Position numbers and translations under genes: made by a program
Virus record (IMG/VR): IMGVR_UViG_3300043803_002450
Origin: an uncultured virus (IMG/VR IMGVR_UViG_3300043803_002450)
Lineage: Duplodnaviria > Heunggongvirae > Uroviricota > Caudoviricetes
Length of the DNA: 64,000 bases
Strand: one strand, 5' to 3'
In this document: positions 1 to 46,592 of the stretch, in pieces
Numbering within the stretch: the stretch's first letter is position 1
How the letters are laid out: the number at the start of each line of letters is the position of its first letter
The notes under the pieces: generated by a model
What the model was told of the DNA's origin: nothing
The model's input: the letters and a program-made list of their open reading frames with translations, nothing else
The model's database searches: none

Positions 1-115
1 GCGTGGTGGTCTCCAGCATCTCAAGGTCGGCCTGCAGGGACCAGTTGGTAACCTTCACCTGCGTGGTGCCCGCGATGCTGAGGGTGCCGTCTTTGCCGGT
101 GTAGTACTTGCTCAT
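1..115 (-). CDS. Partial minor tail / tail-tube-like protein (5' end only; runs off window)
   Basis: ATG at 115 overlaps the stop of the upstream gene; reads MSKYYTGKDGTLSIAGTTQVKVTNWSLQADLEMLETTT, resembling tail-tube-fold N-termini. Confidence 0.6.
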   Translation of the reverse strand, partial: MSKYYTGKDGTLSIAGTTQVKVTNWSLQADLEMLETTT

Positions 116-489
116 GATGTGGTCACTACCAGGCGGATGGTTACGGTGCTACGACCGGGCTTGACGCTGGCAATATCCGGGGGCTCTGCATAACGATAAC
201 GCAGCCCTGATTGTGGTACAAAAGTAGAGCTGCTGCCGGTCCAGCCGGCTTTGGCGTTGTCGGGCAGGTCGAAGGCGGAGAAGGTGCCTTTGGTGGTGTC
301 GTAGCTGGAGATGAAGAGGTCGGCGTCTGCGTCGCTGATGTTCTGGTAGGTCAGTTCCAGCGTGCCACCGACGCGCTTGTTGCCGTAGAGGATGCGGGAT
401 TCGGCGCCGCTTTGCGTGCGAAACAACTTAACCGGGTAGTCGCCCGGATTGAAAGTGCGGCTCGATGGTCGGAGGTTTGGCAGGGTCAT
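112..489 (-). CDS. Minor tail protein (distal-tail-like)
   Basis: 125 aa, translationally coupled downstream of the tail-tip gene; size and position fit a distal tail protein. Confidence 0.6.
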   Translation of the reverse strand: MTLPNLRPSSRTFNPGDYPVKLFRTQSGAESRILYGNKRVGGTLELTYQNISDADADLFISSYDTTKGTFSAFDLPDNAKAGWTGSSSTFVPQSGLRYRYAEPPDIASVKPGRSTVTIRLVVTTS

Positions 490-3400
490 CAGTCAGGTGC
501 CAGGTCGCTTACCACCGTGAATCCATTGTAAGAAGGCTTGAGTTCATTAGCGACCACGCTGTAGCCATTTTCGTCGATGGGGAAATAGCTGGCGCTGATG
601 CGTGCCAGACCTTCTTCGTCAAGGTCGATGGAATCGACCATGTAGACAAGCGAGCGCGTTGTTGTGTCTTTGATGGCAAAGATTGAGCCGAACAGTTTAT
701 TTGCTTTGGGCTGGCCATCGACAATGCTGATGGTGAGCGTGTCTTCGTTGACCTCGTTGTCGTTGCGGTCCCAGTAGTACACCTGCACGCTCTGGCCGTT
801 GGTGAGCTGGGCGGGCGTGATGATGGCGCCATTGTCTTTGATGATGCCGGACGCGCCAGGCTGGACGTAGCTGGCTTGTGTCACCACGCGGATGAAATCG
901 CCGGGCGCCAGGCCGAGGCCGTAGGGCAGCGTCTGGAAGCTGACCACATGGGTGCGGTGACGGCGGGCGCTCAGGGCGTACTTGGCGAACAGTTCGGCGT
1001 GGTAGCGGCTGGTGATGTGGGTGAAGTTGAACTCCTCCAGCGGGCCGTTGGGCTGGTCCGTGTAGTACACGACCGCTGTTTGTTCTTGAGGGAAACGGTT
1101 CGGTAGTTCCGTGCGGTAGCGCACCATGGCACGAATGGGGAGACGCTCTTGGGCTTGAATGTACTCAAGCTGGAACGAGTCTTCGATGATGTTGCCTTCG
1201 GTGAAGATGCCCGAGATGGGCACCTTGACATCGAACATCGTGTAGTTGCGAGTGGTGTCGATGGGGAGGGCGGGTTCGATTGAAAACTTGCCGCCGCGCA
1301 TGACGAGGTTGCAAAGCAGCGAGGTGCTGATGCGTGCCAGGAATTCGCGCAGGTTTTGCGGTTCGACGATCACGTCGTCGTAATACAAGTAGTTGGCTTC
1401 CAGGAACATTGCCGTGCGGGCAAACTGAGCCTTGTCGATGAGGTCAGAGCTGATCAGCTCGCCAGCTCCCGTTTGGATGTTGGTGAGTAGGTAGTAGGCG
1501 AGGTCAGTGAAAATGTTGGAGGAGCTAGTGGTTTCAACAATGTTGCCGTTGCTGGTCAGGCGCAGATTGGTAACGCTGATGCCGTTCTTTGCGTAAATGT
1601 GAAGCTGTTCCAGTTGGTTCAGTTCTGCTGTGCTGCGGAGCTTGAGGCCCGCCATGGCGCAGCCCGTGTACGTGGCCGGGCTGTTGTTGCGAACAGCCAC
1701 GGTTTCGTTGATGTAGACAATTTCGTGCTCTGGGCCGTTGTCGCAACTGCGTGAAATTAAATTTGCGTAGTGTGATACCTCGGCAATGCCTACATTGCCT
1801 TCAAATGTTCTTTCGCCGCCGAGGGTGGGCGGAGAACTGATGGGAACCGGCGCAACAATTTGGAAGTAATAGTCAATCGTGATGGCGGGATTTCGCAGAA
1901 GGCTACGAATGACAAAGACTTCGTTGCCAGTCCAACTGCCGGTCAACTGCAAAATTTCGATGTTGTCTGGCTCTACAATTTCCCACCAGTGACTCAGGAA
2001 GTTTGTAGCTGTTATGTTTTCTGGCGTGGTGTACAAGCGCAGCTTCATCTTTAGTCGCACAACGCGACCACCCTGGTCGTAGCGAAATGCGGTGCTATCG
2101 GATTCCGAAAATGTGTAAATGCCACCAACGTTGAAGGGGAAGTATGTGATAACTGGAGTGCCATGGAAAGTGTTGTGTTCGGCTCCTCGTGGATCGGGAT
2201 CTTTGTCGATGGCTTTAGCGATACCGTTGCTGATACGGAATCCATTTGCGTTTATGTCCAACGCATCCGAGGCTACTGCCTTAAGGAACCGGACACGCGA
2301 TGGGGGAGGAGTGTATGTTGAGGCCCCTCCTTGATACACGGGATTGCTGATCATTTCCGGCGCCAGTGCCAGCTCTTTTACGCTGGCAGGCTTTGCCATC
2401 ATGTACAGCGTGAACAGCCCGTAGTTTGTTGTTTTTGTTTGCGAAATGTACTGGCCTTCAGCATAAGGAACGGCGCCTTCTACATAAAGTCTGTAGCAGG
2501 GGCCTTCTACGGTTATGCCATTGATGGTTGCTTTTGTGTAGGAACCGTCGGCATTGCGTATTTGATTGATTTCGCCTGAGGTGACAGGACGCAGTCTGAA
2601 TTCGTACTGCCCGAATCCATGGGCAATGCGGATAAAGTTGAACTGATCTTGCGGGGCTGATCCAACCACCGCAAAGGGATGGTCATTTAGTTTTTCCCAG
2701 CCCTGATTAAAAGCATATGACTGGTTTGCAGGCCTGACGTAGACGTCAAAAAACGAGGCTCGCTGTATATACGACTGGTTTGTCCCAGCGGTTAGTGCAA
2801 TGTTCTGAACGTCGTAATCCCGTAGTTTTGTTACGTTGGGAACTGATTTAAAATTGCAGATGCCGTTTAGTTTGTTCCAGACATTGCTTTTGATGCCTAT
2901 TTCAGTGACGTTACAGCTACGGCTATTTTGGAACGATGCAATGTCAGCTTTGCAGATTGGGAACCAGGCTTGGCCGATGTCATAGATTGCCCCGTCTGGC
3001 CCTTCTGGGAGATTGGTTTCGGTGTTGACAAAGCCACGGTGACAGACGCCGACCTTCCCGACTGTCCCATCGAAGACTTCTTTGCATACCAAGGTAACAG
3101 TGCGAGGCTGTAAGTCGCTGCGATCGTATATTGTATTGGCTGGATTTCTGGCGGTAACTTGAAAAATACAGTTACCAATCATCCATTTGGTGCCGATCTT
3201 TAGTAAGTCATCTTGCTGTTCGTGTTCGGCTTGGATGGCATCGCGGACTTGTCGGTTGTCCACGGCATTAACGTCGGGGTTGGCATACAAAAAGCCATCA
3301 CCTGTGTTGCGGTTTTTATTTGCAACAATGTTGGGGTTGTTGTTGTCGTAGTAAAGCTCGTCCCTGACGCGCCCCTCGTTGTAGATGATCGTGATTTGAT

Positions 3401-19840: not shown

Positions 19841-20776
19841 CTAGCCGCCTGGGCTCGTACATCTTTTGCAAATGAAATTGTCTGAACTTTCGATTTGTCC
19901 CGTTACTTGCGCCGCCACTTGTCCAAAGTCCTTTCCTCGATAGTATTCTTCAATCGTCATATCGTTCAGATTGGGGAGCTTAACTTCGGCGTGATAGTCC
20001 ATGCAACACAATCGAATGTCTCCATTCCACATGACATGGAGCCATTCATCAAGACGGCTGCAATGGAACGGCGAACCTGGGCCAATGTCGCGAACCTTTC
20101 CAAAGTTATTCTCGCCAGCACCCCGCTCCTCTCTGTTGATTGTTCCAGCCCTGTCGTGATAAGTGAAATAGTCCAGATCAATCCACGAGAGATCAAACCC
20201 ATGCTCTTTTGAAAGGTTGTACCAATACTCGAAATACTCTTGGCGCGAGAACCAATGACGCCCAATGCCAGTGCGAGAAGATCCACTCCCCCTAATTCGA
20301 ATGTTTAGACGCCCCTTGGCTTCTTTAATCAAATTGATCAAATTAGAAGTGGATCGCTCGTGATTGATCTTCATGATTTCTTCGTGAGAAGCCTTATCAA
20401 TACCATGGTGACTCACCCACACCTCATGGGGCTTGCCTTCCAGCAGCGGGATCAGGCGCTCGGTTTTATCCTTAGAAAGCAGCGCCCCATTCGTTGAGAG
20501 CTCAAGAACAGCTCCCGGGAACTTGCTCTGTATTTCCTCGCACAGTTCAAAAATGCGCTTGTCAACAAACGGCTCTTGCATCAAATAGGGACAAATCTTG
20601 CCGCCATCTTCAATGCTCTCTTTCCATGGCAGCAGCATGTCCAAGATACGAGAAAACAGCTTTCTGTCCATCACGCCGTAATTGGCATGGTGCCAGCTTT
20701 CTATCCAGGGACAAAAAACGCAATTTGCATTACAGGCTCCTTGCGTTTGAATTTGAATGTTCTTGAGGCGATTCAT
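19841..20776 (-). CDS. Radical SAM enzyme with SPASM/twitch domain
   Basis: CNANCVFC (Cx3Cx2C), LSTNG, C-terminal C...NGDIRLCCMD...CKRC. Confidence 0.9.
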   Translation of the reverse strand: MNRLKNIQIQTQGACNANCVFCPWIESWHHANYGVMDRKLFSRILDMLLPWKESIEDGGKICPYLMQEPFVDKRIFELCEEIQSKFPGAVLELSTNGALLSKDKTERLIPLLEGKPHEVWVSHHGIDKASHEEIMKINHERSTSNLINLIKEAKGRLNIRIRGSGSSRTGIGRHWFSRQEYFEYWYNLSKEHGFDLSWIDLDYFTYHDRAGTINREERGAGENNFGKVRDIGPGSPFHCSRLDEWLHVMWNGDIRLCCMDYHAEVKLPNLNDMTIEEYYRGKDFGQVAAQVTGQIESSDNFICKRCTSPGG

Positions 20777-22668
20777 CGGATGCGTGAGGGAGAGTTGTTA
20801 TGGAAGGCGATGGGAGGAAGCGTGTAGCTTTTTAACAAGGGCAAATCTTCTTTTCGATAGGCGAATAGATGATGTTTGCAATCTCGCATGCTTTCTGTGT
20901 TGGCAATCATTTGCAGATCCAGCGGCAAGTAAGCCCGCGAAAAAACTTTGAGGAGCTTAGATAAGCCTTGCTTGGTAACTAAATAACCATCTGTGCCACA
21001 TACATAGCCCCAGGTAAAGCCATCTTTGTTTCGCATGCTGCGATCATTGAAAAACACAAGATCCGCGTCTTCTGGCACTTCAAGAATCAGCGGTCGCATC
21101 ACTTCAGTATCGTCCTCGAGAATCACAAGATGATCCATGCCCTGGTCAAGGGCATACTCCCAAAGGGCAATGGAAGAAAGTATCAGTGCCGCCTCGCCAG
21201 TGCGCTTCAATGTGTCTTTGTCATCGTCAATTTCCCAATCGATTGGTATTGGACTTTGCGCTTCTAGCTCCTTGCGAGACAGTTGCCGACCATCGATCGC
21301 CGCCCACCAATTGAATCCTTGTTCAATTTTGCCCATTTGATCGGCAAACTTCTTGCGTCGCTCATCTCCTTCAATGCTGATGCAGAAGACATTGCTACCT
21401 TCACTGAAATCAATCCATTGAGTTTGTTGGCCAGGGAAGCTCGTCGTCCCCTGGCCCTTAGGCTTTTTTGCAAAGCCCTTAGCAGCGCTTTTCTTTGCCG
21501 TGACAAGCAGTTCCTTGACGATGCTCAGCATTTGCTTTTGGATGGAAGACCATGAGAGCTCTTGTTCATGTACGCGCTGATAACACCAGTCGCCGGCCTG
21601 TTTAAGGGCCATGCGATTGTTGTAATAGCTGGTCAAGAGCTCGGCCATGCTATCAGGCTCTGGCAATGGCCTCTCGAGCCCATAGTTCCTGTCTGTTTCA
21701 GAACCATGACAAGCAATGCGCGGAACGCCATGAAAGATTTCCTTCAGGCTTGTATGGTCTGGAACCAATTGGGCCACGCCCGTGGCGGCATGCTCTGTGT
21801 TGACCAGGCCCCACCCTTCGCCAATGCAAGTATTCACGCCAATGTCGACGGCGTTGTACACCTTGTTCAATTGTTCAATGGGAAGGCAGTTGCTGGTTGA
21901 AAAATGCGGACTGGTAAGAATGAGCTTGCCAGTTGCGTCGTAACCCTCGTCTCGTGCCACGCGCTTGAATAGAGGCACCAAGTCCCATCCCATGTCTTTT
22001 TTGCCCATATTGAGCCATAGTCTTGCGTCTGGCTTGTCCTTGGCAAATTTGATAAAACCCTTGATCGTCAAGTCGATGCGCTTGCGCGGCTGATTTCTGT
22101 TGCCATTGAACACAATGAAAACATCCTCGGGTACCCCCAGCTCCTTGCGGCACTCTGCCTGATCGAGACGGAAGAACTTCGAGAAGTCAGTGCCATGCCC
22201 CACGACGCGGATTTTGTCTTTGTAACCAATCTTTCGGATTTCTTCTGCCCCGAATCGCGTGTAAGTGGCAATGCCGTCCCATTCCTCTAGCGCAGGCAGT
22301 AGTTCAGGAAAGAGTCCATAGCTATCGATTGGCGTGTAGACAAACCACTTGAAACCCAGGGCCTCCTGGAATGGCTTAGCCGCTTCCCAGAGATTGATGG
22401 CGCACCAAATATCATTCGTCACCCACACCAAGTCCGGCTTGACGATCTGCAAGAGCTCTGCCAAGCGATGGCTGCCAAACGGATCAGAGCCGTGAGCCAT
22501 GGCCGGATACATCTTGCAATGCTTCTGCATGGGATCTGGATCACCGTACCAGTTGACTGCCAGCACATGTACGTCGTGCTTCTCTGCAAGGGCCGGAAGC
22601 AGGTATTCCGCCACTCGCCCAAAGCCCGTTTGGCAAGCAGCGTCGCCGCAATAAAGGATGGTTGCCAC
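20773..22668 (-). CDS. Bifunctional glycosyltransferase: N-terminal GT-B (GT4-like) fused to C-terminal GT25-like domain
   Basis: TGFGRV, NRNQPRKRID, EGWGLVNTE in N-half; CISI...RR...AIDG...ILEDD...GTDGYLV...LPLD in C-half. Confidence 0.85.
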   Translation of the reverse strand: MATILYCGDAACQTGFGRVAEYLLPALAEKHDVHVLAVNWYGDPDPMQKHCKMYPAMAHGSDPFGSHRLAELLQIVKPDLVWVTNDIWCAINLWEAAKPFQEALGFKWFVYTPIDSYGLFPELLPALEEWDGIATYTRFGAEEIRKIGYKDKIRVVGHGTDFSKFFRLDQAECRKELGVPEDVFIVFNGNRNQPRKRIDLTIKGFIKFAKDKPDARLWLNMGKKDMGWDLVPLFKRVARDEGYDATGKLILTSPHFSTSNCLPIEQLNKVYNAVDIGVNTCIGEGWGLVNTEHAATGVAQLVPDHTSLKEIFHGVPRIACHGSETDRNYGLERPLPEPDSMAELLTSYYNNRMALKQAGDWCYQRVHEQELSWSSIQKQMLSIVKELLVTAKKSAAKGFAKKPKGQGTTSFPGQQTQWIDFSEGSNVFCISIEGDERRKKFADQMGKIEQGFNWWAAIDGRQLSRKELEAQSPIPIDWEIDDDKDTLKRTGEAALILSSIALWEYALDQGMDHLVILEDDTEVMRPLILEVPEDADLVFFNDRSMRNKDGFTWGYVCGTDGYLVTKQGLSKLLKVFSRAYLPLDLQMIANTESMRDCKHHLFAYRKEDLPLLKSYTLPPIAFHNNSPSRIR

Positions 22669-25511: not shown

Positions 25512-26015
25512 ATGCCCACGCCCATTGAATTCGTCTTCTCCGCAGAGGAAAGAAAGCAGGCGATGGAGGAGGGACATAGGAGACAGTTCGTCAATGAAGC
25601 CAAGGGACTTCGTGGCCGGAATAAGGGGCCACGCTTTGGAGACAAGGCCTTGGAAGTACATTTGCTTGGCGCAGCAGGAGAAATGGCCGTGGCTGCCTTG
25701 CTAGGCCTTAAGCACGAGCTCTACAGAGAAAGCGAAGCTCGACGCGGCTCAGACGACCTGCCGGGCATCGATGTGAAAACGCGATCAAAACACTCATATG
25801 ACCTCATTGTTCAAAAGAATGAAGACCCGCATAAAAAGTTTGTTCTCGTAACCATTGAAAACCAAAAAACCTTCATCCATGGCTGGTGCTGGGGAGAAGA
25901 GGCGATGGAGGAAAGGTTTTGGGCTGATCCGGCCAGGGGACGGCCTGCCTACTTCGTCCCCAAGGATTTTCTTCGTCCGATGAGCACCCTGAAGCCCCAT
26001 GCTTTCGTGCAGTGA
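25512..26015 (+). CDS. Hypothetical protein, possible PD-(D/E)xK nuclease, coupled to TerL
   Basis: GAAGEMAVA...DD...IDVKT motif; overlaps TerL start. Confidence 0.55.
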   Translation: MPTPIEFVFSAEERKQAMEEGHRRQFVNEAKGLRGRNKGPRFGDKALEVHLLGAAGEMAVAALLGLKHELYRESEARRGSDDLPGIDVKTRSKHSYDLIVQKNEDPHKKFVLVTIENQKTFIHGWCWGEEAMEERFWADPARGRPAYFVPKDFLRPMSTLKPHAFVQ

Positions 26016-27372
26016 TTTTGCGAAGCACGTTCTAAAGCTAGAACTCTGGCCTGAGCAAAAAAGAATTCTCGATGCCTACTTCAGCGGCAACAAAACCCAT
26101 GCCGTATGGGCGCTCGGTAGGCGGTGCGGAAAGACGCTTATGGCGGCTATTGCTGCACTATATGCTTGCTTTGTCCTAGAAGATCAATACAAACGACGAG
26201 TGCGCAAGACTGAAAAGTGGTACATCCTTACCATCGCCAATGATCAAAGCCAGGCAAAGCTCGCCTTGAACAACATTCGTCAGTTGCTCATGGACAGCCC
26301 TCTTGTGGATGAAATTACAAGAGAGACCGCCACTGAAATTGAGACCAGTAACAATTGCGTGTTCCAGGCAATTCCAGCATCCGCTCGAGCGTCTCGAGGC
26401 AAGGCAGTGGTGATGCTAATAATGGACGAGCTTAGCTTCGCAATTGAAGGTGATGCAAACCGAGGGGCCAAGGCAATTTACGACGCTCTCTCTCCGTCCA
26501 TTGCCCAGTTTGGTCAGCACGGCCGCATTCTTGAGCTTTCTTCGCCTTGGCTCACAGACGGTCTTTTCTACCAGCATTACTGCGAGGCCAAGTCTGGAGA
26601 GTTTCCTTTTATGCAGGCAGTGAATCTCCCAACTTGGGAGGTCAATGTTAATTTGCCATGGGGATGTCCATTCCTTGATGCCGAACTGAAGAGAGATCCT
26701 GACAAATTTTGGGTGGAGTATGGCGCTCAATTTGCCAAGAACAATACAGCCCTGCTTGCAACTGAAATCATAGATGCAGCAATCAACAAAGAGAGGAGTG
26801 TGCTTTTTCCAGAAAAGGAATTTACTGGCACCTATGTTCTTTCTCTTGACCCGGCTAGGGGCGGCGTTGGAAGGGATGATTACACGGCTTGTATTGTTCA
26901 TTATGAAGGCACAAGGCTAGTTGTGGACAAGTTTCACGCCTTTGAACCTGACTTTGAAATTGGCGGCAAAAAAGAAGTGAATATGGCAAAAGTGGAGGAA
27001 TGGATTAAGGAGCATCATCGTATTTACGAGTTTCAAAGTATTGTCCTTGACCAGTTCAATAGCAGCTTCATCATTCAAAATCTCTCCAAGGATTTCCCCA
27101 TTGCAGAGCTTGCTTGGTCTGTTAGCACAAAGATGAAAGCCTTCAGCAAGATGAAAGAGCTTTTTAACGCTGGCCTGATTGAGCTCTATCCTCATCAAAA
27201 AGCAATCACTCAGTTAAAAAATCTCAGCGTCATTTATAGGGCAAGCGGACAATGGGCGGTGACTGGAGGCAAGGAAGTGGGAGTTGACGACTATGCATTT
27301 GCGCTAGCTGCGGCTATTTTGGAGGCATCAAAAGATAACGACATTGACTGGTTAAACAGTCTCGTGCGATAA
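25999..27372 (+). CDS. Terminase large subunit
   Basis: Walker A GRRCGKT, Walker B LIMDE, nuclease LSLDPA...DDY, C-terminal DD. Confidence 0.92.
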   Translation: MLSCSDFAKHVLKLELWPEQKRILDAYFSGNKTHAVWALGRRCGKTLMAAIAALYACFVLEDQYKRRVRKTEKWYILTIANDQSQAKLALNNIRQLLMDSPLVDEITRETATEIETSNNCVFQAIPASARASRGKAVVMLIMDELSFAIEGDANRGAKAIYDALSPSIAQFGQHGRILELSSPWLTDGLFYQHYCEAKSGEFPFMQAVNLPTWEVNVNLPWGCPFLDAELKRDPDKFWVEYGAQFAKNNTALLATEIIDAAINKERSVLFPEKEFTGTYVLSLDPARGGVGRDDYTACIVHYEGTRLVVDKFHAFEPDFEIGGKKEVNMAKVEEWIKEHHRIYEFQSIVLDQFNSSFIIQNLSKDFPIAELAWSVSTKMKAFSKMKELFNAGLIELYPHQKAITQLKNLSVIYRASGQWAVTGGKEVGVDDYAFALAAAILEASKDNDIDWLNSLVR

Positions 27373-28259: not shown

Positions 28260-28274
28260 TGATAGGCTTTATTT

Positions 28275-28326
28275 ACGTTTGCCCCTTGCGGGGTGCATGA
28301 AAGCCATCCAGGAAACGGGGGATGGG
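28275..28326 (+). promoter_or_regulatory. Glutamine-II (Downstream-peptide)-like riboswitch
   Basis: P1 CGTTT/AAACG, P2 GCCCC-TTGC-GGGGT, pseudoknot CCATCC/GGATGG; -10 TGATAGGCT just upstream; short peptide downstream. Confidence 0.7.
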
Positions 28327-28344
28327 GACCATGGAGAAACGCCC

Positions 28345-29615: not shown

Positions 29616-29685
29616 GGGCTCCTCCAGGAATCGAACCTGGCATTCCAGGCTATCTACCTGACGTGTAAGCCTACACTAAGGAGCA
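29616..29685 (-). tRNA. Non-canonical tRNA-like gene (central triplet GAT, nominally Ile); possibly pseudo-tRNA
   Basis: Cloverleaf TGCTCCT-TA-GTGT-AGGCTT-ACAC-G-TCAGG-TAGATAG-CCTGG-AATG-CCAGG-TTCGATT-CCTGG-AGGAGCC-C. Confidence 0.6.
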
Positions 29686-40952: not shown

Positions 40953-42874
40953 GCGACCTCCTTGGAAAGCTCTTCTGCCACTTTCACCCAGTGCTTACGC
41001 TGTTCCAAAGAAGCCCTTGAAAAGGTGATGCCAGCGGCTTTAAGGCCCGCTAAACGATTGATATCGCCACGCACTTTGCGAAATGCAGTGTCATTGTCTT
41101 CAATTTCTCGGTATCTACCCCCAAAGCGAATTAGGTTTGTAAAATAAATCGCCTTTTCGCTTTGCCGCTTCATGTCTTCTTCGTACGATGGTGCAGCCGG
41201 AGACTCTTCATCTTCAATTTGCAAAGACAATTCATCGACGGAGACGCCAAGACACCGACACTTCGCTTCAATTTCGGAAATTGCATGCTGCTCGGCCCGC
41301 TCTTCTCCTCGTAGAAACAAACTCAATATATGCTCGGACCAGTGTGAATCAATGTAGCAATCAGCAGCATTTTCATGCACTTTCATTGCTTCAATAATCT
41401 CGTGCCAGTCAGACGCATTTTCACTTCCCCTGTATACTCCAACGCTGTTTTCGCCAGAAGTAACAATGCCGGTTACATTCTTTCGCTCAGGAATCGACTC
41501 TCCGCAGTTGTCCTTGGCAGAACGGTCAGGCAGCGCTCCACAGGCATCTTCTACCTGTTTCTCAATATTGCGAGCAATATAGCGAAGCTTTGGATGCGCA
41601 GGGGCTACAACATAAGCAATATTATCCGACCTGTTTTTATCCGCGTATTGATCCTTGCCAATGGGAATGCGACGAACAGTCCTGCCAACCACTTGGATAA
41701 AGTAAAGGACAGTAATAATTGCACTTAAATAAGCGACAACTTTAATCTGAGGAATGTCAACTCCCTCGGAAATCATCCCCACTGAAACAATCGCATCGGG
41801 CTTATCTGCAGCATTTTCCTTGCATTGTTTAGCAATTTTTTCAAGCTTTTTCGCTCCATTATTATCATCACTAACAACTACAGAAACGCGATAATCAGGG
41901 CGAAGTTCTTGAATGTATTCCGCAATCTTGCGAGCATCTTTCATGCCTTTCGCGACGCAAAGCATGACGCTGGCGTTTTTTTGGTGACAAGAGCGTTCAA
42001 TTTCTCCACGGCTTTTGGAAAGCAGAGTCAGCGCCTCGTCAATGATGCGACGAATAGTTTCGTTTTTGCCGGGCGACTCAATATCCAAATCGAAATGGAG
42101 GTGCCTACCAAGGGGCTTATCGCATTTCTTCGCCCATTCCTCCCATTGCTCTACATTCTCCCATTCATCACAAGGGAATTTCGGGAGATCTTTGTGCAAT
42201 TCAGAAGCCTTACCATCTTCACTGCGCCAAAAAGAATCCCAAAACTTGAACTTCACCGGCACAGTGCCACGAGTCTTAGGTTCGCGAAGATCTTGCGCGT
42301 AATCGTAAACAAAATCAGCCCGAATGCGACCATCGTTTTGATAATAATTTTCGCCACGAATATTCTTCTCGTCACAAAGAACTGCAATCTTTCCTTCGCG
42401 TTTCCAGGGGGTGCCGCTCAGAAAAATAGCATGCTCACAAAGAGCAACAAGGCGATCCACGGCATTCCCCCATTCGGCAGTGTCTGCTGGATGATGAAAC
42501 TCGTCAATGATTGCAATGATGCCAGAAACAGGGCGACTGTGCAGTGCTTCTTCTACCTTTGAATAACCAGCGTAAGTTGACACCCAAACATTTGCATCAA
42601 TGGGAAAATCAGAGTTGTCTGTGACATTAACTCGTCTTCCGTTGAGACGAAGACCGTCAAAGGTTTTTTTCCACCCCAGTCGAGTGCCGCAATTGGGAGT
42701 CAAGACAACAACCAAATCTGCCTTGCCATCCTCGAGAAGCTTTAAAGCGGCAGTAGCACTGCAGAGAGATTTTCCTGATCCAGTACAAGCTTCAATGACA
42801 AAAAGCTTGCGACCTTTGGCAAACTGAGGCAGACAGGTGTTGATTGCTTGCTGTTGCCATTTACGTAAGTTCAT
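40949..42874 (-). CDS. SF2 (DExH, ResIII-like) helicase
   Basis: Q motif LRKWQ, TGSGKS, IIDEFHH, LSGTP, SEGVDIP, QVVGRTVR. Confidence 0.9.
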   Translation of the reverse strand: MNLRKWQQQAINTCLPQFAKGRKLFVIEACTGSGKSLCSATAALKLLEDGKADLVVVLTPNCGTRLGWKKTFDGLRLNGRRVNVTDNSDFPIDANVWVSTYAGYSKVEEALHSRPVSGIIAIIDEFHHPADTAEWGNAVDRLVALCEHAIFLSGTPWKREGKIAVLCDEKNIRGENYYQNDGRIRADFVYDYAQDLREPKTRGTVPVKFKFWDSFWRSEDGKASELHKDLPKFPCDEWENVEQWEEWAKKCDKPLGRHLHFDLDIESPGKNETIRRIIDEALTLLSKSRGEIERSCHQKNASVMLCVAKGMKDARKIAEYIQELRPDYRVSVVVSDDNNGAKKLEKIAKQCKENAADKPDAIVSVGMISEGVDIPQIKVVAYLSAIITVLYFIQVVGRTVRRIPIGKDQYADKNRSDNIAYVVAPAHPKLRYIARNIEKQVEDACGALPDRSAKDNCGESIPERKNVTGIVTSGENSVGVYRGSENASDWHEIIEAMKVHENAADCYIDSHWSEHILSLFLRGEERAEQHAISEIEAKCRCLGVSVDELSLQIEDEESPAAPSYEEDMKRQSEKAIYFTNLIRFGGRYREIEDNDTAFRKVRGDINRLAGLKAAGITFSRASLEQRKHWVKVAEELSKEVA

Positions 42875-43082
42875 GATCGAACGATGCAGATTTAAAAATA
42901 TTGCACCGTCTGCAACATGCCACTCCATTGTCAATAGTGGTGCGACCACCTTGACTAAAAGGCACTACGTGATCAATTTGAGTGAGAAGCCCTGGCTGCA
43001 GCTTTTCACCGCAATAGCAGCAGGTCCAGTGATCTCTCACAAGAATCTGCAAGCGTTGCCTTTTAGAGAATAGACGACTCAT
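42861..43082 (-). CDS. Small HNH endonuclease
   Basis: RDHWTCCYCG...IDHVVPFSQGG....NGVACCRRCN; overlaps helicase start. Confidence 0.9.
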   Translation of the reverse strand: MSRLFSKRQRLQILVRDHWTCCYCGEKLQPGLLTQIDHVVPFSQGGRTTIDNGVACCRRCNIFKSASFDHELT

Positions 43083-43206
43083 AGTCAAACGACTACACGC
43101 AGAAAGCGTGTTTCCCAGACGGGATCGGCAAAACCGACTCGCAAATACTAGCAAGAAAAAAGAAAAGCGCCCCTTGCGGAGCGCTCGTGGATTCCGTTCT
43201 TACAAA

Positions 43207-43569
43207 TCATGCCCTAGTGAAACAGAGTCGCGCAACTCCTTGTGAGGGATTGGCAATGCGAGCGAAAGCTGCGAAAGACAGATCGAGCACTCTCCCATGG
43301 ACAAACGGTCCACGGTCTGACACCCTCACCACCACTGACTTTCCATTGGCTGGATTTACTACGCGCAAGCGGGTGCCGAGGGGGAGCGATGGAGAGGCAA
43401 CAGTGAGGCCATAGGCATCAAAGCGACTTCCATCAGCGGCCCTTTGACCGTGATAACCATCGCCAACGCCATAGTGCGAAACATGGCCGCACGACGATTT
43501 CGCCTCCGCTGACAATGGCGCAAATGCACCAAGGGCAACGGAAGCAGCAGAAAGAAAACGAAAAAGCAT
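43207..43569 (-). CDS. rlpA: RlpA-family (DPBB) lytic transglycosylase with signal peptide
   Basis: SHYG..DGYHG..AADG..FD..GLT.A...LPLGT..RV.N...SVVVRV.DRGPF...RVLDLS. Confidence 0.85.
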   Translation of the reverse strand: MLFRFLSAASVALGAFAPLSAEAKSSCGHVSHYGVGDGYHGQRAADGSRFDAYGLTVASPSLPLGTRLRVVNPANGKSVVVRVSDRGPFVHGRVLDLSFAAFARIANPSQGVARLCFTRA

Positions 43570-43680
43570 CAGAAAAGAAAGTAAGTAGCAAGGCTCCAGG
43601 GAGTCGCCTCCTGGAACCATCAGCTTATCAAGCGTGTCAAGCCCCTTGTGAATGCGCCTTGAACAGTGCTATGCTTTGCA

Positions 43681-43875
43681 GGTCTGGTTGGTCCTGGGCG
43701 AAAGCCCCTCCGTTGGAGCCGTAAGGGTGGACGCCTCTGAGCAGTGGGTGGCTTCGCGAGAACCACCAAGGCAATGCATGGGCCTGTGAGGCACTGCTCC
43801 CCTTTTGATACTTAGGGAAAGGAGGCATCGGAAGCCAGCCACGAAGAAAGGGGAGCGAAAGCTCCCCTTTCTTTT
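43681..43875 (+). ncRNA. Unassigned highly structured ncRNA (about 160 nt plus terminator)
   Basis: Extended -10 TGCTATGCT, nested stems with GNRA loops, terminator AAGAAAGGGGAGC-GAAA-GCTCCCCTTTCTTTT. Confidence 0.7.
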
Positions 43876-44199
43876 GTCTATAGACAACCAGTTGGTCCCC
43901 ATAAAAAAAAGAGGCCGAAGCCTCTTTAGTACAGCAGCCGGTCGTCGTCCCATTCAGGAACTAGCGATGCCCTTATGGGCTTGTCTGGAAACAACTCTGC
44001 GGCCGAAGCCAGTGCCTGCTCGCTGGAGACGGCCATGATCTCAACGAAAGCAGTGCCGCCCCACACCCTGAACAGCGCTGGTTGAATGGCAGACGAAGAA
44101 TGACTGTCTGTCACGGCAGGATTGTTGCAAAGATGAAAATGATCAAGGCGCATACCCCCCAGTACACGCCTGCCAGAACAAAAATAGTGTGCAAATTCA

Positions 44200-45449
44200 T
44201 TAGAGACCAGCGACTACTGATGCAGCATAAGCCGCCAAATATTCCATGAGGTCCTCTTCTGAAGGTGCTTCAGTTACGATTTCTTCATGCTGCTTTTGAT
44301 GCTTGGTATATGCAGCCTTCAGAGAAAAATAAATGTGCTCCAAGAAGTAGCGATGGGAAGTGTTGGCTTCCATCGTGATGACTTCTTCCAGCGTGGTCAG
44401 CCAGTTTTCAAGGTCTCTTGTGCGGAAGCTCCAGAACACGCAAGGCTGGCCACCGTTCATCACCAGCTCATTCTTTTCAGTGAAAGCAGATGTGCCGAGG
44501 GAATCGTGAGAAATCGTTGCAGCCATGATCGGCTTGCGAAGAACTCCCTAATTGTGCAGGGGCGATGGGAGGGGCGTCAAGGGGCACTGCCATTAGCGCT
44601 GCTTATGGCTTTAGCGCTTTCTCCAGCCAACGGCCAAGAAGTGGCAATTGCCAATGGGCTTCAGCACCACGTGCTTTCCTGCCCTGGTAATAACGTTTTG
44701 GAATGCCTGCCTCTTCACTTTGTTCAGGGGCTCGCAAGGCTCTTCCAACCAGCTCTTCGCCCAGTCGGCCAGCTCCTCAATGTCGCATATATCGGCTGTT
44801 TGCAGCACGAAATGCCGGCCACGCTGCCCTATCTTCTGCCATGCCGGATGCACTGGGGGCTGCTCCTTCGCCACCTTCTGGGCTTCTTCTTTCAGGATAG
44901 GAGGAATGCAGATGCTCACCATTGGCGGCAGCTTATCAAAGGAAGAGTTGTCCACAATGGTCACAGGAGATCGTGGTAGCTTTCTTCGTCGTCGCCGTTG
45001 AATACTTCCTCAGGATCGCGCCCGGTCTCTTCTAGCTTTTCAAGCACTGCCTGGTTGATTTGCTTGCGCATGGCACTGCGGTAGTCTTCGTCTCCACCGA
45101 AGCTCCCCACCTCTTCCAGTAAGCGAAGAGCAATGTTCAAGGTGCTGATGTCTCGCAAGGTCATTAACGATTCAGCCATGGCATCATTGTCAATGTGCTC
45201 TTGAAGAATGCCTTGGTGATAGTCAAGCCATTTGCCAAGGGCGACAATGCAAATCTGTTTCAAGGCTTCATCGCCATATTGCTCCACTTCTCTGTCTACG
45301 AGCGTGGCGATTTCAGGAGACATTGCAAAGGTGGCCGGATCTGTCAGGAACGGCTCCAGCCCTTCTTCAACTGCTTGACGCTTGCGACTTTTGGCGCCTT
45401 CCACCTGCTGCAGGAAATGGCTAACGGAATCAAAGGAGAAGGAGTCCAT
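44200..45449 (-). other. Three hypothetical genes (44200-44526, 44611-44964, 44961-45449)
   Basis: Same-strand ORFs with plausible protein composition. Confidence 0.6.
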
Positions 45450-45518
45450 GGAGAAAGGCAACAAACAAAGCTTGCCGGGGCATGCGGCCATTGTCAAGCA
45501 AGACAAGCTTAAGCCTTT

Positions 45519-46247
45519 CTAACCATCGGCCGGAAGGAGGGGCCTGCTGCTACCAGTTGGTTCTCCATCATCATCAAACTCAGGCTCACTGGCTTCTGCA
45601 TCAATGGCCCCTGCTCTCGTGCTGGAGTTGGATTCTGCTTCTTTTATCTTCTTCACTTCTTTGCTCAGTGTGTCAAGGAAATTCTTGTAGCCGCTCTTCC
45701 CGTCTTCCAACTGAGGCTTCACGTCGAACAATCCAATGAGCTTTGCCTGTTGCTCGAGACAGCTTCTGGCAATGCCTAAGAAGCCACTCTCGCCAGCGCT
45801 TTCTTCAATGCGCACGATGGCTTCGTCAGTGCCTTCTTTAATGGTCGTCACCCTTTTGCGCTTACTCGCCTCAAAGGCTTCAAGCGCTTTCTCTTTCAAA
45901 TCGTGCTGCTCTTGAACCAGCCTTGCCCGCCAAGCATCCTGACTTTTAAGGATTTCGTTGGTCCAGATTTGACGGTTGTGAATGCGGTCGCTACTGACAG
46001 TCTCTTTTGAAAGCTTGAGCACGTCTGCAATTTGCTTATTGCTCATGCGTGCTGCCAAAAGCTCTTGCACCATGAAGCGTCTTTGTCCCGTCAGGTCTTT
46101 GTCATAAGGGATCTTGCCAGGACCAGAACCGACCTTGTTGCGAATGCGATCAATTTGCTCTGGAGAGAAGCCTGCTTCGACAAGCACTTTCGTAGCGTAT
46201 TGGAGCTTCTCTTCTTCCGAGGCAAAAGAAATGTCTGGTTGTGGCAT
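45519..46247 (-). CDS. Probable terminase small subunit (HTH plus helical oligomerisation region)
   Basis: MSNKQIADVLKLSKETVSSD HTH and C-terminal CLEQQAKLIGL motif typical of TerS; acidic tail. Confidence 0.6.
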   Translation of the reverse strand: MPQPDISFASEEEKLQYATKVLVEAGFSPEQIDRIRNKVGSGPGKIPYDKDLTGQRRFMVQELLAARMSNKQIADVLKLSKETVSSDRIHNRQIWTNEILKSQDAWRARLVQEQHDLKEKALEAFEASKRKRVTTIKEGTDEAIVRIEESAGESGFLGIARSCLEQQAKLIGLFDVKPQLEDGKSGYKNFLDTLSKEVKKIKEAESNSSTRAGAIDAEASEPEFDDDGEPTGSSRPLLPADG

Positions 46248-46592
46248 GACGAGACAATGGGAGGGGGTTAAAGGGGCTGATTGCCTTTGCCAATAAGGCT
46301 TCTGGCGAACAATGCAGAGAAGCGCTCTTGTTTTTCTGGCGTGACTGTTGAAGGGCTTTCTGAAATGGCCTTGCGAAGAACATTCAGTTCTAGCCACTCC
46401 TCAGGAGAGAGCAATGGGAAGGGGAGAAACGGAGCGCTCATGCAACAGCTAAAGAGTACAGAAAGAATAATGAAGAAAGAAGAGCCACGAAAAATATGGC
46501 ACCAAGAATTCCACTGATGATGCCAATTCGCATTTCATGCTCATGGATTTTCTGTGCAATCAAGGCGTTGATTTCTTCGCGGCTCATTGTCA

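Follow-up and report, generated by a model that had tools for sequence, protein, structure and literature searches.

A compact stand-alone RNA gene with a near-invariant junction in S-CBS4-like cyanosiphoviruses

The stretch of DNA analysed here (64,000 nucleotides of an uncultured virus, referred to below as the window) belongs to an S-CBS4-like, temperate-looking cyanophage that encodes a tape measure, a portal, a class-barrel ribonucleotide reductase, thyX, an integrase, and, at 25999-27372, a large terminase subunit. Among named phages, only Synechococcus phage S-CBS4, in which terL is annotated, matches the primase-helicase of the window and a small protein encoded next to it along the greater part of each (58% and 45%). 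On the plus strand, between a divergent rlpA-like gene (43207..43620, minus strand; DPBB_1, Pfam PF03330) and convergent small genes, lies a gene for a structured RNA. An extended -10 element (TGn TAnnnT; here TG.TATGCT) at 43667..43675 would place the transcription start near 43681-43682; the structured core, helices P1 to P10, occupies 43682..43840 (a CM match of 130 bits, together with covariation), and an intrinsic terminator, assigned by consensus and often bidirectional in the family, follows at 43846..43875, all on the plus strand. A terminator scan puts the terminator of the convergent minus-strand genes at 43908..43927. We found no useful relatives of a downstream 75-aa ORF, and, of 63 member loci, only 8 gave a match to a nearby small HNH gene.

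The original prediction, made from the letters of the window, was of a stand-alone, compact, noncoding and covarying RNA outside Rfam, and the Rfam scan, the homologues and the compensatory events described below bear it out. The promoter and terminator that it proposed on the plus strand recur throughout the family: of 89 representative members, 80 show TGnTAnnnT 4 to 8 nt ahead of where the model begins and 88 show TAnnnT (shuffles, 1.9%), and a putative intrinsic terminator follows the RNA in all 89 (shuffles, 0.4%). These calls are consensus matches from a dedicated script; a generic scanner, which probably depends on a -35 and treats the U tract as part of the stem, reported neither. No reading frame is conserved among the 89 members, whose lengths are spread over the three frames 39/24/26, in agreement with the earlier statement that there is no credible ORF. 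A weak hint of transcription comes from one freshwater-lake metatranscriptome (X1), in which two contigs, at 158 nt (depth 3.7) and 152 nt (depth 3.9), fall inside the RNA but give neither its strand nor its ends. One is the window variant (43692-43834, with an adapter-like loose end), and the other continues as an L005/L519-type variant; X1 holds no other cover in 41500-46000, which lends the contigs no weight. In small shares of X2 and X3, which are probably DNA, a related phage is present.

The RNA had also been called antisense to the surrounding gene block. This is correct as to orientation only: no conserved gene is overlapped, and a convergent terminator intervenes at 43908-43927. By sequence, the terminator hairpin of the RNA also works on the opposite strand in 63 of the 89 members, and an antisense-strand terminator lies within 150 nt downstream in 74; because of the latter and of the minus-strand terminator in the window, we regard the RNA as insulated rather than antisense. 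That the element acts in cis on rlpA or on the minus-strand operon, regulates either of them as an antisense RNA, or is a mere structure in the DNA is largely refuted and in our view extremely improbable. What speaks for such a role is that rlpA adjoins the RNA, lying no more than 700 nt upstream in 76 of the 82 members whose flank spans 500 nt or more. However, rlpA is missing in the remaining 6 and the RNA persists at such loci, so it is not an rlpA leader. Conversely, the RNA was not found in three complete rlpA-bearing phages of 186-223 kb. Further against this reading are the RNA's own promoter and terminator, the insulating convergent terminator, and the excess of G.U over A.C cells in the alignment (411 versus 12), which places the RNA on the plus strand.

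Homologues were collected along two routes. Two motif scans of viral contigs gave 69 and 104 matches and, with P1 pairing also required, 64 distinct members. Since these scans force some of the motifs, loci were also gathered through a neighbouring protein alone, giving a viral set (the best 80 of 98) and a metagenome set (the best 80 of 154). In the viral set, 59 of 60 rlpA-bearing loci gave a profile match and the sixtieth, L329, holds a divergent copy; in the metagenome set, in which many loci are short, 40 of 80 gave a CM match. Drawn from these 160 partly redundant loci (and defined separately from the 89 representatives), 89 loci of the clade have at least 3 kb of flank, and 86 of them carry the RNA, 85 as detected with nhmmer and L329 with the CM. 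The three without it (L286, L489 and L491), contigs of 79-109 kb, all pass through the same join, 3' of the anchor gene, into another gene block, the terminase region of a different phage; a single assembly artefact or rearrangement is the likely explanation, and the record of one of the three has the RNA at another place. At 7 of 80 rlpA loci, a copy sits in the same position.

In all, 108 distinct full-length homologues were obtained, from which the 89 representatives were chosen for alignment and counts. There is a single match per source (the window and 88 other sources) and a single match per whole record in three complete records, and members down to 37% identity keep an unchanging core. 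A blastn search of named phages with the window RNA returned terminator-sized matches only, and an exact 23-mer scan returned none; one family copy matches, at 100% identity, a stretch of S-CBS4 that carries no annotation, there too divergent from rlpA. In G001, the nearest virus record, nothing matches the RNA region. A loose scan of genome contigs gave at least 120 loci, and among the 100 scored with the model there was one true match, L370, of which positions 1-3092 combine this phage's gene order with the RNA inside a Bacteroidetes genome bin; this block is probably mis-binned. The family, then, is an RNA of S-CBS4-like cyanosiphoviruses on small freshwater and coastal cyanobacteria. It has been kept across a widespread picocyanobacterial siphovirus clade and so bears on the takeover of, or residence in, major aquatic primary producers; moreover, the cultured pair S-CBS4 and Synechococcus CB0101 carries it unannotated, which makes it unusually testable.

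From 5' to 3', the RNA runs through P1, an invariant G, and P2 with P3, P4 and P5 inside it, then through P6 and P7 to a three-way junction from which P8 and P9 branch; P10 and the strand ATCGGA follow, and the chain closes in P1. Covariation in the 89-row alignment sets P1 at 43684-89/43833-38; the register originally given for the closing stem (43685-91/43835-41) is that of the MFE fold and clashes with P2. The invariant G43690 opens the segment 43690..43732, which otherwise is domain 1: P2 (GTCC/GGAC, 43691-94/43729-32) encloses P3 (43696-43707, with a GAAA loop) and P4 (43708-43718), both dispensable, and P5 (43719-26), a two-pair hairpin of the form CC-GYRA-GG (CC-GTAA-GG in the window). 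Three hairpins inside GTCC/GGAC had been predicted and are there in the sequence, and P2 varies with compensation among synteny-fetched members, which confirms the predicted P2 over the MFE fold. Domain 2 (43733..43826) consists of P6 (43733-38/43821-26), P7 of fixed length (43739-46/43792-99), P8 with a GCGA loop (43747-67), P9 (43769-72/43782-85, conserved loop AATGCATGG) with its loop L9 (43773..43781; conserved C-R-U-G-G at 43777-81), the junction strand GYRAGG (43786-91), and a variable P10 (43800-03/43814-17). Here the helices and the GCGA-looped P8 had been seen correctly, but the supposed GTGA-looped stem had not, GTGA at 43786-89 being part of the junction strand; P10 and the near-invariant junction strand ATCGGA (43827..43832, CGGA invariant) were absent from that first reading. 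Similarly, several GNRA loops do occur in the window, but only L5 is conserved. The core measures 135-218 nt across the family.

Folding of the single sequence is weak evidence for this structure, with z at -2.98 when the terminator is included and at -1.25 for the core alone, for which 25 of 200 shuffles were equally good; the support rests on the homologues. In the 89-row CM alignment, 95.8% of 4281 cells are paired, against 38-48% in slid controls, and both sides change in 47 of the 49 modelled pairs among the representatives. Because a CM alignment is fitted to its model and kin share changes, compensatory events on the same branch were counted on a tree. This yielded 335 events, with a mean of 6.8 per pair against 0.17 for non-pairs, and at least 2 in 44 of the 49 pairs; the covariation among homologues on which the original prediction had staked its case is present in abundance. 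The P1 wobble U43688.G43834 is kept in 81 of 89, and in P5 a single C-to-U change leaves the pair intact (L496). We therefore conclude that this is a genuine stand-alone structured RNA gene with a covarying secondary structure.

No covarying loop-loop, kissing-loop or tertiary pair was detected in the homologue alignment or on the tree, and MI/APC, calculated with five incomplete or misaligned rows left out (L129, L137, L178, L214 and L329), gave no tertiary pair. A candidate pseudoknot of 3 pairs, between YGR in L9 and UCG, fits most rows, shows one-sided changes only, and equals its shuffle control. Pairing of AU in L9 with AU of the junction was considered and rejected, as L458 keeps AUGG though the junction AU is lost. 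For a candidate pairing of the CCG of P5 with CGG, both partners are invariant, and a test by covariation is blind to such contacts, in that invariant bases cannot covary.

While the helix sequences turn over with compensation, some 13 junction bases barely change. They cluster at the P1/P2/P6 junction as the G, CGGA and CC-GYRA-GG: G43690, CGGA and a GYRA sequence in L5 are each present in 89 of 89 members. ATCGGA as a whole is kept in 87, the other two (L329 and L458) having TGCGGA, which goes with a shortened strand after P5. The 5' strand of P6 plus P7 measures 14-16 nt and is 15 nt in 77 of 89, and L9 retains its C-R-U-G-G, which can relax to Y-G-R, even with a 30-nt hairpin inserted before it in L458. 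The periphery is much freer. P8 and P10 range widely in length, the P3-P4 region is only 2 nt in 4 of 89 by alignment (and absent by eye in L329), and natural deletion variants, with L325 and L329 as minimal members, shrink the RNA to 135 nt. Large hairpin inserts with the core intact occur in L9 of L458 (5923-6136, minus strand) and in P10 of L205 (2347-2564, minus strand), and would be useful natural engineering sites.

This pattern fits a ligand-binding junction, although it is equally expected of ribozymes and aptamers. Clustered invariant bases, fixed arms and a dispensable periphery resemble catalytic cores, and a new class of ribozyme, self-cleaving or trans-acting, with its active site at the G/CGGA junction, would account for the 13 or so near-invariant bases as well as for the want of a partner protein gene. 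We nevertheless consider it distinctly unlikely. The RNA matches no Rfam ribozyme (at E up to 5 for the window, and up to 2 in six divergent members), its own transcript ends leave no evident need for self-cleavage, the sole tRNA of the window lies 14 kb off, and there is no conserved substrate-pairing strand. That tRNA, a short tRNA-Ile(GAT) of 69 nt at 29616-29684 (minus strand), is the only ARAGORN call in the window.

Could the junction instead bind a small molecule, as a trans-acting aptamer or sponge for a defence second messenger, an alarmone or a metabolite? Conservation centred on the junction, the way in which two junction strands are remodelled together in L329 and L458, and the fact that these phages already carry a glutamine-II aptamer are all compatible with such a role. 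However, neither an expression platform nor a same-strand downstream gene precedes the terminator, no riboswitch family is matched, and to our knowledge there is little precedent for free-standing RNAs that soak up metabolites; we rate this reading as quite improbable. The glutamine-II riboswitch itself lies at 28273-28327 of the window (plus strand; 34.4 bits, above Rfam gathering); it also occurs in two records of the same clade (G002 and G003) and was not found in one 222-kb rlpA phage.

Comparison with known RNAs gave no relative. Rfam 15 returned no match over 43682-43840 at E up to 5, nor one at gathering when the whole window was scanned, and none at E up to 2 over the RNA in six divergent members; the earlier failure to match it to 6S, SRP, tmRNA, RNase P or small ribozymes thus agrees with the Rfam scan. 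Run with filters off on the E. coli rrnB operon, the model scored 8.9 bits at best; three sense-strand copies of the P5 8-mer are present in E. coli rRNA, and this 8-mer hairpin is all that is shared. ARAGORN found no tRNA-like fold, such as might place it with the tmRNA TLD or Y RNA, at the RNA, and the 3' end of P1 varies freely, with no conserved CCA. Compared with Pfam, the 67 ORFs of the window include no RT, Cas, Ro60 or toxin family and no dedicated partner gene; for retron, DRT, omega/HEARO, CRISPR and type III antitoxin RNAs, there is no adjacent RT, nuclease or toxin gene among them. An antitoxin mimic, suggested in the original prediction, is not borne out: the analysis turned up neither repeats nor a toxin gene, and no pseudoknot that is conserved.

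Among the titles and abstract openings of the literature, none describes this RNA. For their candidates DNAVirus_786, 8392 and 8393, Fremin et al. 2023 (PMC10690425) give lengths of 74, 106 and 46 nt, in a set that does not exceed 151 nt, and list the first two no more than 25 bp upstream of DPBB_1 genes in aquatic Caudoviricetes. DNAVirus_786 and 8392 might overlap the RNA locus in part, and this bears on novelty. At the 5' end of rlpA lies a separate hairpin (43596-43614), present in several close relatives. Translation of rlpA probably begins in reality at its second ATG, near 43569; the hairpin would then lie in the leader, and it could be what DNAVirus_786 describes. What is new would be the family and its fold; its function may be of a known kind.

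Among the orphan RNAs of phages and bacteria, GOLLD and ROOL, encoded by phages and prophages, assemble by A-minor and kissing contacts into cages made of RNA only, whereas the raiA motif, at 205 nt, is a monomer (10.1101/2024.12.08.627333). GOLLD, ROOL, OLE and the raiA motif are likewise stand-alone, covarying and multi-junction, and raiA is similar in size. The present RNA differs from them in that it matches nothing in Rfam, is far smaller than GOLLD, has no tRNA island nearby, and shows no covarying kissing loops. The pRNA of phi29, similar in length to this RNA, belongs to a type of packaging motor that works without a conventional terminase. It too is phage encoded, has three-way junctions and its own promoter, and is kept across a phage clade. 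Its right- and left-hand loops are complementary (PMC12084888), whereas here there is no complementary covarying loop pair, no Rfam match, and a conventional large terminase.

That our RNA is a structural part of a phage machine (pRNA-like, in a packaging motor or replisome), or an RNA-only oligomer assembled through the GYRA and L9 loops, is unlikely on this evidence, though it has its merits: retention in the clade is nearly universal and single copy, the build is multi-junction, no receptor for the invariant GYRA loop was detected within the molecule, and GOLLD and ROOL set a precedent for RNA-only cages (10.1101/2024.12.08.627333). Against it stand the conventional large terminase, the loss of the L9 CATG palindrome in other members, and the monomeric state of the similarly sized raiA motif. 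Dimerization through the CATG palindrome was rejected as a candidate in its own right, as the palindrome is not kept across members.

The loop of P9 raises one further possibility, namely that P9/L9 displays AUG (or UGG, complementary to the CCA end of tRNA) as bait and so traps 30S subunits or tRNA. AUG or GUG stands at the L9 position in most rows, and one large subfamily has an SD-like AGG(AG) in the 5' strand of P9. We consider this reading very improbable, however, as the ORFs that begin at the L9 codon share no frame and are 2-57 codons long, in several members an SD is lacking or UCG, GCG or CUG replaces the codon, and the CAUGA and CACGG variants break the pairing to CCA. A start codon in L9 with an encoded peptide was likewise rejected, from the same frames and lengths.

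The reading that we favour, with a probability of about 40%, is that the RNA is transcribed by the host machinery and acts as a protein-binding decoy or mimic. Since the helices drift with compensation while the 13 or so junction bases stay fixed, the RNA looks like a surface read by shape rather than a base-pairing RNA; in agreement, the family alignment holds no long variable single strand that might serve as a guide or antisense seed. It is the lack of a guide segment, a partner gene or a nearby substrate that leads us to place a decoy for a host protein first. The unchanging core in members down to 37% identity would suit a slowly evolving host ligand, and the kept U.G wobble beside the junction would suit read-out by a protein. 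Adenovirus VA RNA, which is about 160 nt long and self-standing, with paired ends and a conserved central junction, is of the decoy type. There is no homology between the two, the host domain is different, and for our RNA the decoy role is a proposal by analogy.

In mechanistic terms, the locus would be a moron-like gene whose RNA product acts in trans. Host RNA polymerase of the sigma-70 type would transcribe it from the extended -10, independently of the surrounding operon, presumably soon after entry or, as the integrase in the window suggests, from the prophage. P1 joins the 5' and 3' ends of the RNA, and P6 and P7, as arms of fixed length, may bring L9 and the GYRA loop of P5 to dock onto the P1/P2/P6 junction; GYRA loops are known to dock into helical grooves. 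The compact fold would then show an invariant face made up of G43690, CGGA and CC-GYRA-GG, and this face would most probably bind a conserved host macromolecule (an RNA-binding regulator, a nuclease or an anti-phage sensor), so that the RNA titrates the host protein as decoy or mimic.

One more ambitious, albeit tentative and on balance doubtful, possibility is that the RNA founds a new functional class, in which the invariant junction either acts as a catalyst or sequesters a signal or sensor that the host uses against phages, and the 135-nt members represent the active core. Counter-defence would then be exerted through a folded RNA instead of a protein. Ribozymes, riboswitch aptamers and RNA cages were discovered among new RNA folds of this sort, which have a tight invariant core and no adjacent protein gene.

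Two other features of the window may be recorded. An HTH protein (45519-46268, minus strand) is labelled "RNase E" by both PHROG and the Atlas, and one Atlas cluster neighbouring it carries Terminase_5 on 11% of its members; this protein is possibly a small terminase, distant from terL. Between the portal and head genes, at 19841-22668 (minus strand), lies a Radical SAM/SPASM gene together with a fused glycosyltransferase (GT4 plus GT25).
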